Program-made: the position numbers and the translations under genes
Part shown: piece after piece, positions 3,085-36,438 of the stretch
How the letters are laid out: every line of letters begins with the position of its first letter
Numbering within the stretch: the stretch's first letter is position 1
Notes under the pieces: generated by a model
The model's database searches: none
What the model saw: only the letters and a program-made list of their open reading frames with translations
Told to the model about the DNA's origin: nothing
Origin: a virus
Taxonomy: Duplodnaviria; Heunggongvirae; Uroviricota; Caudoviricetes
DNA: 46,024 nt
Reading direction: 5' to 3' (one strand)
Virus record (IMG/VR): IMGVR_UViG_2718218133_000007

Positions 3085-5447
3085 TATACGTATTCCTTAA
3101 GCTGCGTATCTGACAATGCTCTGTTCCAGAAACGGAGGTTTTTTATATGACCATTAAGGTGTCGTAATCCTGTCGTCGTTTGCCCCCCGATTCGAATCAC
3201 GGCTGCTTCACGAATATATTTCCATACTGTTTTGGTTTCAGTGCTTATATGCTTATTTGCAAATGAGCATGTCATGCCGTCAGCCTTAACCCTGAATCCC
3301 ATAACGAGATCTCTTACTCCGCATGACTCATATACACGCCGGTTAGCCCCGCCTATATCGCAATACGAATAACCATCCTGACTGATAGTTCCAGAAGAAC
3401 CAAACCCCATAATAAATGGGCCTCCGGACTGGTGATTTTCTGAATCAATGACACGCGGTGCAGCATTATGAGAAATAAACCAGTTTTTATGGACTTCCAC
3501 CATGAACGTAAAAGGCATGGTATACATATTTTTCATCAGCGGAAATTTACATAAATCTGATGCACGAGTCGCTGGCTCTGTTGTCGTTATGATAAAGGAA
3601 GTTGCACAAGCACCATACTCGAATTGCGGGGTGGTTACTTCTATCCAGTCACCTGTTGCAAAAGCCCCCACTGCTCTGTCGGCTGCAATTTGCAGCTGCG
3701 TACCAACCATTCCCCATTCTGGCAGACATTTCAGTGTTGCCTGAAAATATATCCATCCACTACCAGGGTCGATTTCAAAGTTTGCTGTTAATAGCTGGGC
3801 ATTACCACCCGTAATTTGTAGTTCATGAGTCTGTAATGACAAATAGGCGTCACAAAGGAAAGTGTATCCTTCCGAGTTATACCGTTCAAAACGGATACGT
3901 GCGCGAACATTGAGATCACTTCTTACCCTGAACGACGCGGTAACATACGGACCTTTACTGTACTGATCATCGCCAGTCACATCTATGCCTTTATTACCAG
4001 CAACTGTGCATATATTTCTCCCTGTTGTCGTTCCTGCTATGTCGCTTCCTACTGTGAAACGTCCATATTTAAACTCAAATTCATCTGTTGATGATGTTAC
4101 AGATATACCACCGCTTTTATTCCACGCATCAGGATTAAAACTATTTACGAACATGTTTGTTCGCTGATTCTCTATCAGCAAACCATATTTTTCAAAACGA
4201 GGAACGTTATTCCCTGCCACGGTAATATGCCCGGACTTATCAATATACGTTGCTGATGAAGCGCGGCTAAATTGGCATATGCCATTAACAGGCATTGTTA
4301 TTTCATCACTGCCGATGGTTATTGTTTTATAGCCCGGGGCATACCCTGTTATCGCTTCCAGAGAATCATTCAAGGGTAGCCAGATATCAGGAAGCGGAGG
4401 GACTGAAGCAGGATCAGCGGCATCTTCTGCAATCCGGGCTGCATTCTCTGCTCTTGTTGCGGCTGACGTTGCTTCTATCTCGCTGGCTGCTGCTTTTGTT
4501 TCACTCGTCTTTGCGTTAGTTTCACTGGTTTTTGCAGCTTTTTGGCTATTAGCTGCCGCACTTGCAGAACCAGCTGCGGCACTCTCGCTTTGGGCCGCTG
4601 CATCCTGACTGTTTTTTGCCGCAGTTTCGCTGGCTTTGGCATTCGTTTCGCTGGTCTTCGCTGCCGTCTGGCTGGACTTTGCGTTAGTTTCACTCGTCTT
4701 CGCAGCTTTCTGGCTGTTAGCCGCAGCAGTTGCTGATCCAGCTGCTGAAGTCGCAGAACCGGCTGCTGCGCTCTCGCTTTCAGCTGCTGCAGCCTGGCTA
4801 TTTTTCGCCGCAGTTTCACTGGCTTTGGCATTCGTTTCGCTGGTTTTCGCTGCCGTCTGGCTGGACTTTGCGTTGGTTTCGCTCGTCTTTGCGGCTGTCT
4901 CGCTGTTTTTCGCGTTGGTTTCTGATTTTTTGGCTGCTGTCGCGGAGTTTGCCGATGCAGTCTGCGAGGACGCTGCCGCCTGTGCGCTGTTAGCTGCATT
5001 CGTTTCTGAGGTTTTCGCCGCGTTCTTCGATGATGCCGCTGCAGTTTCGGATTTCTTTGCCACCGCTGCGCTCTGAGAGGCGGCTTCGGCGTTGCGTGCC
5101 GCTTCTTCCACCATTGCCTCAAAACGACGCAATGCCTCCGGCATGACATCATCTTCCGTCATGGCACCGAGAAAATCATTCAGCGTACCTGGTCTGGAAC
5201 CTTCATAGACGGTAATGGTTCCGGCATGTGAAGGCGGAAAACCTTCAACCAGCAGGGTGACGCTGTACTGGCCATACTCAACATCCATGCTGTAACGCCC
5301 GGCTTCATCCGGATTTTCAGAGGCCACCGTGTTCACCAGTACCGTGGTGCTGTTACGCTTTGCCTTCAGTTGAATAGTGCAGTTCTGTATTGGTTTTCCC
5401 GCACCATCTTTCAGCACACCTGAGATTTTTACTGCTGCCATATCCAC
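3084..5447 (-). CDS. stf: side tail fibre protein Stf (lambda Stf-like N-terminus, Ala/Ser/Thr/Lys-rich repeat region, LamG/concanavalin-like C-terminus)
   Basis: 787-aa ORF; N-terminus MAAVKISGVLKDGAGKPIQNCTIQLKA… matches recalled lambda Stf; internal AAKTSETNAKSSQTAAK-type repeats; C-terminal …GHIKNLRFWNRALSDTQLKEYV typical of LamG-like domains; follows lom. Confidence 0.85.
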   Translation of the reverse strand: MDMAAVKISGVLKDGAGKPIQNCTIQLKAKRNSTTVLVNTVASENPDEAGRYSMDVEYGQYSVTLLVEGFPPSHAGTITVYEGSRPGTLNDFLGAMTEDDVMPEALRRFEAMVEEAARNAEAASQSAAVAKKSETAAASSKNAAKTSETNAANSAQAAASSQTASANSATAAKKSETNAKNSETAAKTSETNAKSSQTAAKTSETNAKASETAAKNSQAAAAESESAAAGSATSAAGSATAAANSQKAAKTSETNAKSSQTAAKTSETNAKASETAAKNSQDAAAQSESAAAGSASAAANSQKAAKTSETNAKTSETKAAASEIEATSAATRAENAARIAEDAADPASVPPLPDIWLPLNDSLEAITGYAPGYKTITIGSDEITMPVNGICQFSRASSATYIDKSGHITVAGNNVPRFEKYGLLIENQRTNMFVNSFNPDAWNKSGGISVTSSTDEFEFKYGRFTVGSDIAGTTTGRNICTVAGNKGIDVTGDDQYSKGPYVTASFRVRSDLNVRARIRFERYNSEGYTFLCDAYLSLQTHELQITGGNAQLLTANFEIDPGSGWIYFQATLKCLPEWGMVGTQLQIAADRAVGAFATGDWIEVTTPQFEYGACATSFIITTTEPATRASDLCKFPLMKNMYTMPFTFMVEVHKNWFISHNAAPRVIDSENHQSGGPFIMGFGSSGTISQDGYSYCDIGGANRRVYESCGVRDLVMGFRVKADGMTCSFANKHISTETKTVWKYIREAAVIRIGGQTTTGLRHLNGHIKNLRFWNRALSDTQLKEYV
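4440..5080. repeat. degenerate tandem DNA repeats (period about 189 bp, 63 codons) inside stf
   Basis: Near-identical blocks beginning ~4621 and ~4810 (…cagtttcgctggctttggcattcgtttcgctgg…), with further degenerate copies ~4440-4560; creates spurious alternative-frame ORFs. Confidence 0.6.
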
Positions 5448-17997: not shown

Positions 17998-19023
17998 TTA
18001 CGCCAGTTGAACGGACACGAACTCATCAGGATCAGCCAGCAGCATCAGCGGTGCTGACTGAATCATGGTGAACTCACGCGCCGGATCGCCGGTAGTCACC
18101 CAGTTTTTCGGGTAACGGGCAGAGGCGTTAATGCCTTCGCGCTGTGCGTCCGCATCCTGAATGCAGCCATAGGTGCGCAGACCGCGAGCCTGAGTGTTCC
18201 CCAGCACCATCGTGTTGTCCGGCAGGAAGTTCTTTTTGACGCCGTTTTCCACGTACTGTCCGGAATACACGACGATGGCCACATCGCCATACATTCCCTT
18301 ATAGGACACCGCTTTGCCCAGGTCTTTTACCGCTGTCTCCAGCTCGGAATGAGAGCCGCGACGGGTATCCAGCTTCTCCTTGACGGCTTTGAAGGAACGG
18401 AACAGCGCCCAGCCTTTCGGATCAAACACGATGATATTCACCACACCGCTGGCGTTCAGCGCGTAGGCTTCGATATCGTCGGTCGGGTCATACGTGGACT
18501 TGTCACGCTTGCTCCACTCCGTGCCGCCGGACTGCGTGATGTTATTCGCCTCACTGCGGCCCATATCCACCTCAACCGGATCGAAGGCTTCACCGGTCAT
18601 GGTATATTTGCCCTTAAGCACGGCAGAAACTGCCTGCATCTCTTCGACCTGAGCAATGGCCAGCTCTTCGTCACGCATGTTCTGCATGATGATGCGACGG
18701 CGGCGGTAAGCCGGGTCCGCCAGATTCTGCGGATCTTCATCCGGCAGGCGACGCAGGGTCATCTGCGGATTCACTTCATGCTTGGGTTTGACATATCCCG
18801 GCGTAAATTCAGAGGTGGAGCCGCCACGGGAACGGATAACCTCACCGGAAACAATCGGCGAAACGTACAGCGCCATGTTTACCAGTCCCGGAATTTGTGA
18901 GAGATAGACTTTCTCCGTAGTGAAGGGATAGCTCTCACGGAAAAAGAGACGCAGAAACAGCGGATCAAACTTAAATTTCTGCTCATTTGCCGCCAGCAGC
19001 TGGGCGGTTGTGTACATCGACAT
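17998..19023 (-). CDS. E: major capsid protein E
   Basis: Start at MSMYTTAQLLAANEQKFKFDPLFLRLFF… (341 aa, lambda E length); ORF track extends to 19050. Confidence 0.9.
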   Translation of the reverse strand: MSMYTTAQLLAANEQKFKFDPLFLRLFFRESYPFTTEKVYLSQIPGLVNMALYVSPIVSGEVIRSRGGSTSEFTPGYVKPKHEVNPQMTLRRLPDEDPQNLADPAYRRRRIIMQNMRDEELAIAQVEEMQAVSAVLKGKYTMTGEAFDPVEVDMGRSEANNITQSGGTEWSKRDKSTYDPTDDIEAYALNASGVVNIIVFDPKGWALFRSFKAVKEKLDTRRGSHSELETAVKDLGKAVSYKGMYGDVAIVVYSGQYVENGVKKNFLPDNTMVLGNTQARGLRTYGCIQDADAQREGINASARYPKNWVTTGDPAREFTMIQSAPLMLLADPDEFVSVQLA

Positions 19024-32853: not shown

Positions 32854-33016
32854 GATTCCTCCTTGCTGCCAGTCGCAACCATTTTTTATCAACCAGGCTG
32901 GCGGTATATCCGAGCAGTGTTGGTATTTCGGAAGGCTTCAGCTCCGGTTTACGCTTACGACGATCTGGTACTCTGTAGATGTGTCCGTTCATGACACGAA
33001 TAAGCGGTGTAGCCAT
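32846..33016 (-). CDS. ninE: NinE-like small protein (56 aa)
   Basis: Hand-translated ORF below the 60-aa track cutoff: [56 protein letters not shown]; start overlaps ybcN stop, stop overlaps ybcO start. Confidence 0.6.
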   Translation of the reverse strand: MATPLIRVMNGHIYRVPDRRKRKPELKPSEIPTLLGYTASLVDKKWLRLAARRNHG

Positions 33017-33471
33017 TACGCCTCCTGCTTGTCGCGGAGCAGCTGGAACTCGCAGCTCTGCGGAATAGTCAGGTGGCAGCCAATATTCACCGCCCAGGCT
33101 TCAACCTTACACAGGAAGACATACATCTCTCCGGTATCAAGATCGGAGGTATGGCGTAACGACTGGATAGTGGTGATATCACCGGTTACGACATCAACCA
33201 GGTCTTTGGTTTCATAACCGAGATATGTGTGTTTGAGAGCATCTTTTACCCAAGCTGGAGTAGCGAACGTTTTACCCCTGCTGATGAGGTATTCACTGAT
33301 TTCGCTGTACCACATGTGGCTGAGTGCATTCTGGGAAAGACTGCGTTTCTCACGCCACGGTTTAAGCACCATGCGAAAGCATTTGCCCTCCTCCAGATAA
33401 GGCTGGATCTGCCGACCGATAGCGGTGAAGTTACCGCGATGTAATTTGATGCCATCTTGTGGGAGATTCAC
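33016..33471 (-). CDS. ybcN: YbcN-like protein (DUF1367)
   Basis: 151-aa ORF at the ybcN position of DLP12-type nin regions. Confidence 0.7.
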
Positions 33472-33658
33472 GCTTCACCTCCGCAGAGGTCAAACGCTGG
33501 ATACAATATATCGCAGGTGCATTTCTGCATCTGTGGAGGGAGAAGAGAGTTTGGATTGTGTGTGCGCATAAACGTCCCCGTTTAGCGCAGAAGTCACCGG
33601 AGTTGTTCAGGCTCCGATGACATGATTATGGCGAGTTGATTATCGCAAATCAAAGGTT

Positions 33659-34015
33659 TTAATTGTGCTTTATTCCTTCAAGCGTTGCCTTCATACCAAC
33701 CAAAGAAATGTTTAGCTCTCCAACTTTCTCAGGGCTATATAATTCAGAATGAAGCCAATATTCTGATTTATCTAAACATCTTTTAGCCAGCTCTCGATCA
33801 AAGTCTACGACTTGGGAAGACGCTTCATACCAAAGTCTATAAAGTTTTTCTTCTTCGTTTGGGTTATTAGGCTCACCACGTTTTAATTTTTCAGTATATA
33901 AAATTGTTGAATAAATCGCAGGAGTTAATCCAGTGATTGCCCTCTGCCGCAGATCGGATTTGTTTGTTATCCACCCCAACAGACGATCTCCCATCCATGT
34001 GATAATTGTATCCAT
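33659..34015 (-). CDS. hypothetical protein (118 aa), no family recognised
   Basis: ORF with plausible RBS (aagaaggg…ATG); AT-rich relative to flanking nin genes; occupies the position where K-12 DLP12 has ybcM/ybcL. Confidence 0.45.
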   Translation of the reverse strand: MDTIITWMGDRLLGWITNKSDLRQRAITGLTPAIYSTILYTEKLKRGEPNNPNEEEKLYRLWYEASSQVVDFDRELAKRCLDKSEYWLHSELYSPEKVGELNISLVGMKATLEGIKHN

Positions 34016-34476
34016 GCTTTAGCCCTTCTTAGTAAATAGTGTGTAGGGCGACTGAAGGACCGAGTTTATGCTTTTTCGCATTGCTTTCAGTTAGTACACC
34101 GGTATCGCACCGGAAACAATCCTACGGCAAATTGGTTGTCTGACCTCTCGGTTTTTCGTGCATTAACCGATACCCACTACAGTCTCGGCGAAAGCTGCAC
34201 ACCCCCAGGGTGTACTGGTAGCACTCGGCACAGCCTAGCACGCCACTTTCTTCTCACTATCCAGTCTAATTTTATCCCCTAGTCAGACACTCAGATGTAG
34301 TGCTCCGCAGCGGCATGCGGGGGAATACAAAAACTCGGACAAAATTGGGCCCTCCTTTTTGAATCACTCGCGGGGATGTAGTTATTAATACATGGAAAAA
34401 GATCTGTTTTCAAATCCAACATTATATGGTTTCAATACCACGGGGTGGCTATGTGTTTCTCATTGTTAATTGGAAT

Positions 34477-34800
34477 CTACTGTAATCGATCCGAACGTAA
34501 ATGCGGCAAAACTCGACTCCACTTATCATCCTGCCACGGCCGGAATTTTACATGTGCCGTTTCTCTGGCAAGGATTGCCTGTGCCTTATTGAGTATCTGG
34601 GGATATTCTTGCTCGATAGAAGTGAAGCGACCAGCTTCACGATGCTCCGCAACCTGAAGAAGAGGAGTAACGTTCTGGTAGGTAATTAACATCACATTCC
34701 CTGCTCGCCATAACCAGGCGAGTGTGCAAAGTTCGTTATCAGTGAATTGTTTTGTGATTGGGTATTGTTGAACTGCTAGAACGAGAACGCCAGCATCCAT
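34477..34800 (-). CDS. hypothetical protein (107 aa), no family recognised
   Basis: ORF downstream of ybcK on the same strand; no recognisable motifs. Confidence 0.4.
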   Translation of the reverse strand: MDAGVLVLAVQQYPITKQFTDNELCTLAWLWRAGNVMLITYQNVTPLLQVAEHREAGRFTSIEQEYPQILNKAQAILARETAHVKFRPWQDDKWSRVLPHLRSDRLQ

Positions 34801-34911
34801 TGGCAGTCTCTATAGTAAAACCATAGCTCAGGACGCTTCGTTCAGGATAGATAATTTTATTGTACTTACCTAACTTTCTTACTATAGCACGGTTGAAAAA
34901 GTGATTATTAC

Positions 34912-36438
34912 TCAAAAATAAACCTCACCATCAACCATATATTTGAGAGTACTTATCGCCTGCTGGGCGGATATTGTTTTCATTAAAGGATAGTGTTTAA
35001 AAACAATGCCATTCATAAAATAGATATCACAGGTTTTATTATCTGTATTGATTATGATTTTTTCGAATGTTTTATAGGCAAGTGTACGACATAGCTCTCG
35101 CCCATTTTTACTGGTTAAGTCAATAGCATGAAAATCACCAAGTGAACTCACCGCTTTACTCTTCAAAGTTTTTAATGATACAGAAGCCCTTCGTAATTCC
35201 TTATCTAATACTCTGATTTTTTCTGCTATAGCGGTAACTTCAGGCGCAACAGATAATGCAGCAATTAAATTATTAATTTTCATCTGGAGCTCAATAATTT
35301 TCAACTCTAAAGTTTCATTAGCATCTTTCTTGTTTTCAACTGGTTGGATTTTACTACAATTAAAAAGCAACTCATTAATGATATTATAATCAACCAAATC
35401 TCTCTTTATTGATGGCCTGTCACATCGATGCAGTCTTCTCATCGGACAAACATAATAGCCATGCAAACTTCCAGATACCGCATGAACAATCATGGTATTA
35501 CCACAAGCCTCGCACTTCATAACTGTTCGAAGTAGATTTATCAACATAGGATTTTTGCTACTATTGCTAATACCAAAAGGTGCCAACCGAATTTCCTGTA
35601 CAGCGTAAAACAAATCATCTGATATGACTCTGGGATAATAGCCAGCGATTTCACTTATTCCTTTACCTCTTGCACGATATGAAGGTACGCATATACCTAT
35701 CAGAGCTTTATTCGCTAATAATTTTTCAATTACAGAAGGTCCCCATGCACTTTCTTTTCCTGAGAAATTCTTTACAGCATGATCATTTAAATACTTGGCT
35801 ATTGCATTCAATGAGCGCCTTTCCATCCTGAGTTTAAAAATTAGCTCAATAGTTTTCACCCTGTCGGGGTCTGGAACAAAAGCCGTTCTTTTGTCATCTA
35901 AGGAGAGCCATCTCGGACAAGACGCCGTCATAATCGTACCTGATTCCAGTGCATCCTGCCGTTTTTTCTTCCATGATAATTTAACCCGACTTGACTTTAT
36001 CTCGCTTTCTTCATTTGCCCTTTGTGCTATAAGTATGGCTTTTATTAATGAATATGGCTCATTCAAAGAGTCAATATTATAGACTGTATTGTCGCAAAGA
36101 GTTATAACATCAATACCGTGATTCAAAATCAATTTCAGACGTTCAATCGCTTCACCGACTTTTTCTCTTGAAAGTCTGTCCAGACTTTCAACTAACAATG
36201 TAGTTCCTGGCAATATATAACCATGCTCTATAGCATCTAAAAATTCCGAAAAAGCTCCTGATTGTGCATGCTTTCCTTTGAATGCACTTAATCCTAAATC
36301 TTCATATGTTATGGTATCAAGATAATAATCACTATTTACCTTTAACCATTCAGCAATAAGTCTTCTCTGTCGGTTTAATGAGTCGCCAGACATCTGACCT
36401 GGTGATGAAAATCGCATATATGCTATGGCTTTTTTCAT
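34912..36438 (-). CDS. ybcK: large serine recombinase (resolvase/invertase-type N-terminal domain, recombinase domain, zinc ribbon, coiled coil), YbcK-like
   Basis: 508-aa ORF; N-terminal …AIAYMRFSSPGQ… with candidate catalytic Ser; Cys cluster CEACG…C…C; AT-rich; adjacent to emrE as in DLP12. Confidence 0.75.
   Translation of the reverse strand: MKKAIAYMRFSSPGQMSGDSLNRQRRLIAEWLKVNSDYYLDTITYEDLGLSAFKGKHAQSGAFSEFLDAIEHGYILPGTTLLVESLDRLSREKVGEAIERLKLILNHGIDVITLCDNTVYNIDSLNEPYSLIKAILIAQRANEESEIKSSRVKLSWKKKRQDALESGTIMTASCPRWLSLDDKRTAFVPDPDRVKTIELIFKLRMERRSLNAIAKYLNDHAVKNFSGKESAWGPSVIEKLLANKALIGICVPSYRARGKGISEIAGYYPRVISDDLFYAVQEIRLAPFGISNSSKNPMLINLLRTVMKCEACGNTMIVHAVSGSLHGYYVCPMRRLHRCDRPSIKRDLVDYNIINELLFNCSKIQPVENKKDANETLELKIIELQMKINNLIAALSVAPEVTAIAEKIRVLDKELRRASVSLKTLKSKAVSSLGDFHAIDLTSKNGRELCRTLAYKTFEKIIINTDNKTCDIYFMNGIVFKHYPLMKTISAQQAISTLKYMVDGEVYF

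Follow-up and report, generated by a model that had tools for sequence, protein, structure and literature searches.

A probable structured non-coding RNA gene in an accessory slot of lambdoid prophages of Enterobacterales

Introduction

What is encoded by a gap of about 460 bp among the early-right genes of a lambdoid prophage? The question is raised by positions 34016–34476 of a 46,024-nt viral sequence (IMG/VR record IMGVR_UViG_2718218133_000007), hereafter the window, a DLP12-like prophage of Escherichia coli in which the early-right genes are read from the minus strand. The segment lies between open reading frames (ORFs) of 118 and 107 amino acids (aa). A preliminary description made from the sequence alone had called it ORF-free, and the analysis confirms this: the longest ORF on the transcribed (minus) strand is 43 aa, and the segment is left unannotated by NCBI RefSeq in the 158 E. 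coli genomes that carry the same DNA. That description offered three explanations: a structured non-coding RNA, a long leader of the 118-aa gene, or the remnant of a decayed gene. The comparative analysis presented here strongly supports the first of these; covariation, sharp boundaries, promoter and terminator geometry and the lack of a coding signal point to positions 34046–34377 as a real, previously undescribed structured RNA gene, to which we assign a probability of about 0.9. That the RNA is autonomous and acts in trans, rather than serving as a dedicated leader, is a reading we favour with distinctly less assurance.

The element and its homologues

The element is defined as follows, with alignment column n corresponding to window position 34378 − n:

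34046–34377, minus strand: RNA gene, 332 nt, with first bases AUCCCCGCGAG and last bases CCAGUCGCCC

An alignment of the window, a copy from E. coli 3426 at 83% identity and one from a Klebsiella phage at 78% first brought out the core, and the set of homologues was enlarged by pattern scans of IMG/VR and metagenomes and by look-ups via the 118-aa protein. About 30 distinct sequences from about 100 loci were collected, 78–100% identical across the RNA. Similarity ends sharply at 34377 (the 5′ edge, AUCCCCGCGAG) and at 34046 (the 3′ edge, ...CCAGUCGCC) in every lineage, and these edges persist in lineages with different flanking genes on both sides. The element also differs in composition from its surroundings, with a G+C content of 51% compared with 32% for the upstream stretch and 38% for the 118-aa gene.

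DNA of the RNA gene was found in 158 of 5426 complete E. coli genomes and is carried by two isolated coliphages, Turner and IdasGreatGrand. Copies of 78% identity occur in the Klebsiella phages Kp4856-1 and Kp4862-1, and further copies in prophages of Enterobacter bugandensis and Obesumbacterium proteus. The element is unannotated in RefSeq and has only short hypothetical ORFs marked in phage Turner; nowhere is it annotated as RNA. A covariance model built from 28 sequences (alignment A2) gave a single match in the window, at 34046–34377 with 400 bits, and recovered two held-out homologues at full length (354–387 bits).

The covariance-model scan against Rfam that the preliminary description had put forward matched no family: Rfam 15 at gathering thresholds gave zero matches across the whole window, and at E ≤ 10 over 33500–35000 it gave only small nucleolar RNA noise outside the element. 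The divergent homologues L184, L005, L056 and L071 likewise gave zero Rfam matches at the element. Distant relatives were sought by a pattern scan of genome contigs, which returned one chance match (a Limnohabitans metagenome-assembled genome), and by a looser two-anchor scan, which returned five chance matches; in about 60 lambdoid loci that lack the RNA, neither nhmmer nor the covariance model detected a diverged copy. The family thus appears narrow, every member being at least 78% identical. Full-text literature searches with conserved RNA strings and their complements returned only irrelevant mouse papers, and keyword searches found no description of the RNA.

One homologue, the metagenome contig L080 (1088 nt), is a mosaic in which a Klebsiella-type promoter region is joined to an E. 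coli-type RNA body, which shows that recombination has taken place inside the element or at its edge. Other prophage small RNAs, unrelated to the element, were matched in related loci: STnc100 in two loci and isrJ in one (the coordinates of these matches are L071:3784–3982, L005:156–351 and L184:7437–7512).

A conserved two-domain fold

The features of the fold, in window coordinates with alignment columns in brackets, are:

34274–34377 (columns 1–104), minus strand: 5′ domain, closed by P1 (1–6/99–104) and containing P2, P2a, P3 and P4 (66–74/83–90)
34050–34266 (columns 112–328), minus strand: 3′ domain, closed by P5 (112–117/323–328), with P6 (128–133/183–188) around P7 and P8, then P9 (190–197/204–211), then P10 (226–231/314–319) around P11 and P12
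34297–34302 (columns 76–81), minus strand: kissing-loop strand 1, in the loop of P4, CACUAC
34175–34180 (columns 198–203), minus strand: kissing-loop strand 2, the entire 6-nt loop of P9, GUAGUG
34281–34287 (columns 91–97), minus strand: strand 1 of a candidate second long-range helix, UCUGACU
34139–34145 (columns 233–239), minus strand: strand 2 of the candidate second long-range helix, GGUCAGA, within invariant columns 229–252
34099–34113, minus strand: hairpin P11, ccggtatcgcaccgg, peripheral and variable

Comparison of the aligned sequences gives evidence for at least 12 helices, arranged in two domains, and for a kissing loop that links the domains. The fold model comprises 15 helices and 89 pairs, counted on the 28 distinct sequences of alignment A2. 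Comparative covariation across homologous prophages, named in the preliminary description as a check on a structured RNA, came out clearly in its favour: 96.6% of cells are paired, compared with 33–44% when the 3′ partners are slid by 1–3 columns; 19 pairs show changes on both sides, compared with 2–6 in the slid controls; and the covariation score of 0.233 (about 0.05 when slid) was reached by 0 of 500 shuffles. On the opposite strand each G-U pair turns into an A-C mismatch, which lowers pairing to 87%; the fold is therefore that of the minus-sense transcript. RNAalifold applied to the 28 sequences independently recovers the nested helices and the two-domain fold. The held-out homologues, which are about 81% identical to the window RNA, keep 81 of the 89 pairs (Obesumbacterium) and 87 of the 89 (Enterobacter).

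The best-supported helices are P6, P7, P9, P11, P4 and P10, with up to five pair types at a single position (196:205 in P9). Pairs changed on both sides within the 3′ domain number three in P6, three in P7, five in P9, three in P11 and one in P10, and pairing per helix in this domain ranges from 84 to 100%. P4 has changes from G-U to A-U or G-C, together with one compensatory pair (73:84).

The 6-bp kissing loop was found by a helix search admitting non-nested pairs. Columns 76–81 and 198–203 are paired in 28 of 28 sequences, with AU or GC at 77:202 and UA, AU or CG at 79:200, and three haplotypes exist (CACUAC/GUAGUG, CACCAC/GUGGUG and CGCAAC/GUUGCG). This covariation fits a contact within one molecule and a contact between molecules alike. 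A second long-range helix (GUCUGAC/GUCAGAC) is plausible from the complementarity of its strands. Beyond the helices, the RNA contains long invariant unpaired stretches, for example the 24 nt of columns 229–252 (GAGAGGUCAGACAACCAAUUUGCC), which suggests sequence-specific contacts with a partner.

All three inverted repeats quoted in the preliminary description are present in the window, and only one of them survives comparison with homologues. The ccggtatcgcaccgg stem at 34099–34113 is P11, whose pair 269:275 occurs as AU, UA or CG through compensatory changes; in the L071/L025 lineage a different hairpin is formed from the bases adjoining it. The ccgcatgccgctgcgg stem fails, since a G72A change breaks it in 18 of 28 homologues while improving P4 (pair 72:85), and its bases belong to P2 and P4. 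The proposed long-range ggtatcg/cgatacc pairing holds in only 71% of cells, and its arms belong to the better-supported P9 and P11.

Promoter-like element and terminators

Upstream of the RNA lies a candidate promoter:

34384–34413, minus strand: promoter-like element, with −35 hexamer TTGAAA (34408–34413), an 18-nt spacer, and −10-like hexamer ATTAAT (34384–34389) preceded by TG

The gap from the −10-like hexamer to the first RNA base is 6 nt. The arrangement TTGNNN, 17 or 18 nt, (W)TTAAT or TTAAAT, 6 nt, RNA start is found in 23 of 25 distinct upstream sequences, its geometry being retained although the surrounding upstream sequence has diverged. From this conservation we infer a transcription start at about 34377 from a sigma-70-like promoter. 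A consensus scan called no plus-strand (antisense) promoter.

Directly 3′ of the RNA, a canonical intrinsic terminator is present in the L067, L071, L072, L069, L061, L062, L056, L025 and L055 types, with two different stem sequences among these terminators; in most relatives, transcription probably ends just 3′ of column 332. The terminator is absent from the window type and from the L064, L059, L184 and L186 types, and in these terminator-less types the 118-aa gene starts about 30 nt after the RNA. Because the 30-nt spacer in the window holds no terminator, the RNA is probably also the 5′ leader (untranslated region) of the 118-aa gene, which would share its transcript. The suggestion of a long leader for this gene is therefore apt for the topology of the window, though not, as set out below, as the main purpose of the RNA. 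Within the spacer (34016–34045), GCCCU at the RNA 3′ end is complementary to AGGGC in the ribosome-binding region of the 118-aa gene, and a possible consequence of their pairing would be translational occlusion of that gene.

Perfect palindromes specific to single lineages lie 30–60 nt upstream of the RNA start in L064, L186 and L184, overlapping the −35-like hexamer: AACCATA-TGTTG-TATGGTT in L064-type loci and GATCGAAAGA...TCTTTCGATG in L184. These could be operators or the ends of upstream transcripts. A search for operator motifs common to the RNA upstream region and the rest of the window yielded only chance 10-mers.

A cargo slot with changing partner genes

The gene order at the locus is emrE, ybcK, the 107-aa fragment, the gap, the 118-aa ORF, a ylcH-like ORF, ybcN/ninB, ninE, ybcO, rusA and Q. 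The features bearing on the slot are:

33655–34494, minus strand: swappable cassette of about 840 bp, comprising the promoter, the RNA and the 118-aa gene
33659–34015, minus strand: 118-aa ORF
33016–33471: ybcN/ninB
34477–34800, minus strand: 107-aa ORF, containing only the C-terminal domain of a P22-type antirepressor (PF10548, P22_AR_C)
34912–36438: ybcK, serine recombinase

The 107-aa ORF has the appearance of a truncated gene left beside the emrE–ybcK insertion.

Among 80 prophage loci whose ybcN is 97–99% identical, the RNA is present in 20. In RNA-negative loci, homology of the flank ends at about 33654–33658. It resumes at about 34495 in some of these loci, with other cargo of 770–1159 bp in between; in the most frequent arrangement the match does not return until the 3′ end of ybcK (34873), and in other loci no right-hand match was seen. 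At one locus with identical flanks (L126:3860–4804) the slot is occupied by BstA (PADLOC, E = 3.8e-121), a characterised prophage abortive-infection defence protein (PMC8585504). Further cargo includes a 169-aa membrane protein (L103:4297–4806) and a 260-aa Cys-rich protein (L159:4026–4808). The breakpoints and the alternative cargo together indicate that the promoter, RNA and 118-aa gene form one of several cassettes in an accessory or defence hot spot that extends from ybcN to the antirepressor fragment.

Turning to the genes behind the RNA, these vary between lineages and include the 118-aa family (with three RNA lineages in three genera), a 191-aa membrane protein, a 183-aa protein carrying an RxxxxH motif and a 95-aa protein, all mutually unrelated. 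In L056 an ordinary nin-region DUF1367 gene stands directly behind the RNA. Searches of Pfam, PADLOC and PHROGs with the partner proteins gave no informative or toxin-family matches. For the 118-aa protein itself, no Pfam or PADLOC match was obtained, and its family, PHROG 12412, is of unassigned function; the family comprises only 21 protein clusters, all from Enterobacterales, and the AlphaFold model is a generic four-helix bundle (pLDDT 79.8) that has no significant match in the PDB. Assignment of this protein as a HEPN toxin was rejected, as the structural matches were non-significant and the RxxxxH motif is not conserved. The 183-aa gene of Klebsiella phages (L005:3394–3945, minus strand; also L025) encodes RLRHNLLH, an Rx4-6H motif of HEPN-like form, and matches neither Pfam nor PADLOC; from this motif, the protein is a possible RNase effector.

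The RNA and the 118-aa gene have fared differently where both were present. A second E. coli clade has a truncated or frameshifted 118-aa gene, of which just the initial 193 nt remain, at about 91% identity with indels, and the RNA in the same loci is 98.2–99.1% identical without indels. These loci are L003:4800–5000, where a 66-aa ORF is annotated, L004 at about 4700–5000, where none is, and six IMG/VR loci. Conversely, the most distant 118-aa homologues (51% identical) lie in a different operon that leaves no room for the RNA, and no RNA match was found there. Variable partners, decay of the 118-aa gene and RNA-less 118-aa homologues lead us to regard the RNA as the conserved, selected element and not merely as the leader of the 118-aa gene.

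These observations bear most directly on the strongest competing explanation, namely that the RNA is a cis-acting leader gating an accessory and possibly toxic gene, with the RNA sensing a signal or neutralising the effector. Several features fit this model. RNA, terminator and small gene follow one another within about 40 nt, leaving no room for a promoter of the 191-aa or 183-aa gene; the layout resembles that of type III toxin–antitoxin loci or of AbiF and its RNA RCd22, and a structured RNA upstream of a prophage Abi toxin provides a precedent (PMC12373285). The linkage between the RNA and the 118-aa gene recurs in the three RNA lineages and three genera noted above, and the GCCCU tail of the window type can pair with the AGGGC of the ribosome-binding region. 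We nevertheless consider a cis-acting leader unlikely. One RNA precedes four unrelated proteins and, in L056, stands alone before the DUF1367 gene; it is kept where the 118-aa gene decays, and distant 118-aa homologues do without it. Tandem Repeats Finder detected zero tandem repeats over 33500–35000. No conserved alternative pairing with the terminators was found: inspection by eye showed the RNA tail GUCGCC to be complementary to the 3′ half of some terminators or to the ribosome-binding region, but not in the L025 type. As nin-region genes normally lack promoters of their own, the absence of a promoter for the downstream gene proves little.

Coding potential and other alternatives

Within the RNA, 134 of the 332 alignment columns are variable, and these are spread evenly over the codon phases (46/42/46; p = 0.89). 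The longest stop-free stretches vary between lineages and no ORF is conserved; a 61–74-aa ORF with a GTG start, found in some homologues, is interrupted by TAG at codon 4 in the window. The pseudogene explanation is rejected on these grounds. One short reading frame deserves separate consideration:

34283–34342, minus strand: 19-codon mini-ORF (UUG...UGA, MSEFLYSPACRCGALHLSV), with Shine–Dalgarno-like AAGGAGG at 34351–34357

According to a second alternative, the transcript is a dual-function RNA or an mRNA for this 19-aa peptide (MSEFLYSPACRC...), with the rest acting as a structured regulatory 3′ region. The Shine–Dalgarno-like sequence, located in the 5′ domain, is strong and is built around an invariant GGAGG, which most lineages extend to AAGGAGG and the L056/L184 type to GGAGGUG, at 6–8 nt before a conserved UUG. 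GGAGG, UUG and reading frame are kept in all lineages; the exception is found in three E. coli variants whose codon 13 is UGA, the sole premature stop, which falls just past the conserved first 12 codons. Against these points, variable sites in the mini-ORF are distributed 5/4/4 over the codon positions, with no third-position or synonymous excess and no protein-level selection visible, and the changes in codons 12–17 are compensatory changes of P4. The Shine–Dalgarno sequence and start codon are partly buried in P2a and P3, and the UGA stop lies inside the GUCUGAC strand of the candidate second long-range helix; translation of the mini-ORF would open P2, P4 and the kissing loop. The peptide lacks the hydrophobic character of type I toxins, and no antisense promoter was found. 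A peptide-encoding role is, on this evidence, improbable.

More doubtful still is a processive antitermination RNA, similar to put of HK022, that would allow read-through into the nin/Q region. The element always lies upstream of the nin genes and Q, in the same orientation; lambda has tR2 at the corresponding position, and a terminator lies immediately 3′ of the RNA. HK022 put is about 70 nt long, forms two stem-loops and lies directly downstream of pL or pR. The present RNA, in contrast, is about five times longer at 332 nt, has at least 12 helices and lies several kb away from the immunity region instead of following pL or pR directly. It also has its own putative promoter and an apparently efficient terminator and matches no Rfam family, and its presence in only 20 of 80 near-identical backbones indicates that it is dispensable.

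The weakest alternative, in which the segment is what remains of a decayed protein gene or acts as DNA (an operator cluster or a recombination boundary), has in its favour the mosaic junction beside the truncated antirepressor fragment (P22_AR_C), and we give it very little credence given the even codon phases, the lack of a conserved ORF or repeats, substitutions that are compensatory in helices and G-U-tolerant on one strand only, and conservation far above that of the flanking genes.

Proposed explanation

We propose that the segment carries a free-standing 332-nt non-coding RNA gene, borne as a ‘moron’ in the slot between the replication/accessory genes and ybcN/ninB. By the comparative evidence, its product forms two multi-helix domains (columns 1–104 and 112–328) joined by the 6-bp P4–P9 kissing loop. 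Transcription would begin at about 34377 and, the terminator being missing in the window, would read on into the 118-aa gene. The RNA itself would be the selected product, acting in trans as a folded molecule. Conservation along the full length, invariant unpaired stretches and a tertiary contact are typical of RNAs that bind a protein or ligand, are catalytic or assemble with themselves, and are atypical of small RNAs that base-pair through a short seed.

Since BstA occupies the slot of sibling prophages, superinfection exclusion, defence or counter-defence is our guess at the most likely role, a tentative one drawn by analogy from the slot. It is also conceivable, though doubtful, that the RNA belongs to a new functional class, a large compact prophage RNA of E. 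coli and Klebsiella working without a dedicated protein. Such an RNA-only agent could serve in superinfection exclusion or counter-defence, act as a ribozyme or assemble with itself into an RNA particle.

Several observations weigh against this reading. The folding energy of the single sequence is unremarkable compared with shuffles (z = −0.79 for the minus strand and −0.19 for the plus strand), and its minimum free energy fold differs from the conserved fold, so that the case for structure rests on comparative evidence and not on the single sequence. P1, P2 and P12 are invariant and are neither supported nor contradicted by covariation. In the candidate second long-range helix, six of the seven pairs are invariant and only 97:233 varies (UG or CG); RNAalifold favours a local 3-bp hairpin in its place. 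The homologues represent only about eight lineages of at least 78% identity that recombine, as the L080 mosaic illustrates, so the number of independent compensatory events is modest. The start and end of the RNA are inferred from sequence comparison; position 2 of the −10-like hexamer is not the canonical A, and a stricter consensus promoter scan made no call at the promoter-like element. In most contexts a small accessory gene lies within about 40 nt of the RNA, which fits a cis-regulatory role as well. Finally, a search for antisense targets within the window gave 15 complementary 11-mers compared with 7.3 ± 3.6 expected; the best match, a 14-nt complementarity to 18843–18856, lies in the variable P11 and was set aside as probably due to chance.

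Other candidate identities were dropped as unsupported: a B12 box, group I intron R/S elements, lambda boxB (prompted by the GAAAAA loop of P12) and tmRNA. A CsrB-like GGA sponge was also rejected, only three GGA being invariant.

Relation to known systems

Phage morons, a concept from the literature associated with Hendrix and Juhala, are accessory cassettes that lie between conserved lambdoid genes and bring a promoter and a terminator of their own. The cassette described here shares presence and absence among near-identical backbones, a promoter-like element, a terminator in most homologues and a distinct composition, and its slot alternates with BstA and other single accessory genes. With the promoter as predicted, it qualifies as a moron, although its payload is a large structured RNA and not a protein gene.

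The large ornate RNAs ROOL and GOLLD, found in prophages and phages, have many helices, are of unknown function, and contain kissing loops that were first detected by covariation, some of which proved to be intermolecular (PMC12286853). The present RNA is likewise prophage-borne, with many helices and a covarying kissing loop. It is unrelated to them in sequence and matches no Rfam family, and it differs in its length (332 nt, compared with about 500–800 nt or more), in its hosts, which are Enterobacterales, in the narrowness of its family, and in its lack of neighbouring tRNA genes, a tRNA/tmRNA scan having found no tRNA genes near the element.

Type III toxin–antitoxin systems (ToxI) and the AbiF-associated RNA RCd22 (PMC12373285) resemble the cassette in the succession of promoter, RNA, terminator and small gene, the terminator being present in most divergent homologues and absent from the window, and in their prophage defence context. 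Unlike them, the present RNA has no tandem repeats and no abiF motif or other Rfam match, and it is paired with unrelated proteins that match no toxin family, or with none. It is distinguished from riboswitches and the cis-leader class by downstream genes that are unrelated to each other and by its persistence where the gene has decayed, and from type I toxin–antitoxin systems of the hok kind by a mini-ORF peptide (MSEFLYSPACRCGALHLSV) without a membrane helix and by the lack of a called plus-strand promoter. The base-pairing prophage small RNAs DicF, IpeX, STnc100 and Pas of E. coli and Salmonella (bioRxiv 10.64898/2026.05.13.724894) are also lambdoid non-coding RNAs with their own promoter, here a promoter-like element, but the present RNA is much longer, is constrained over its full length, contains a tertiary contact and lacks any recognisable seed or target.

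Significance

Large RNAs with conserved tertiary structure are rare, and in the past such RNAs have proved to be ribozymes, ribonucleoprotein scaffolds, sensors or self-assembling particles. The function of ROOL and GOLLD is still open, partly because their hosts are hard to work with. The RNA described here, in contrast, resides in ordinary clinical and commensal E. coli and in coliphages, so that lambda genetics offers a direct test of what a structured prophage RNA does. If the RNA-only reading holds, this would be the first ‘ornate’ RNA of its kind in the best-studied bacterial host. The element also shows that the cargo of a prophage defence hot spot can be a stretch that looks ‘intergenic’.

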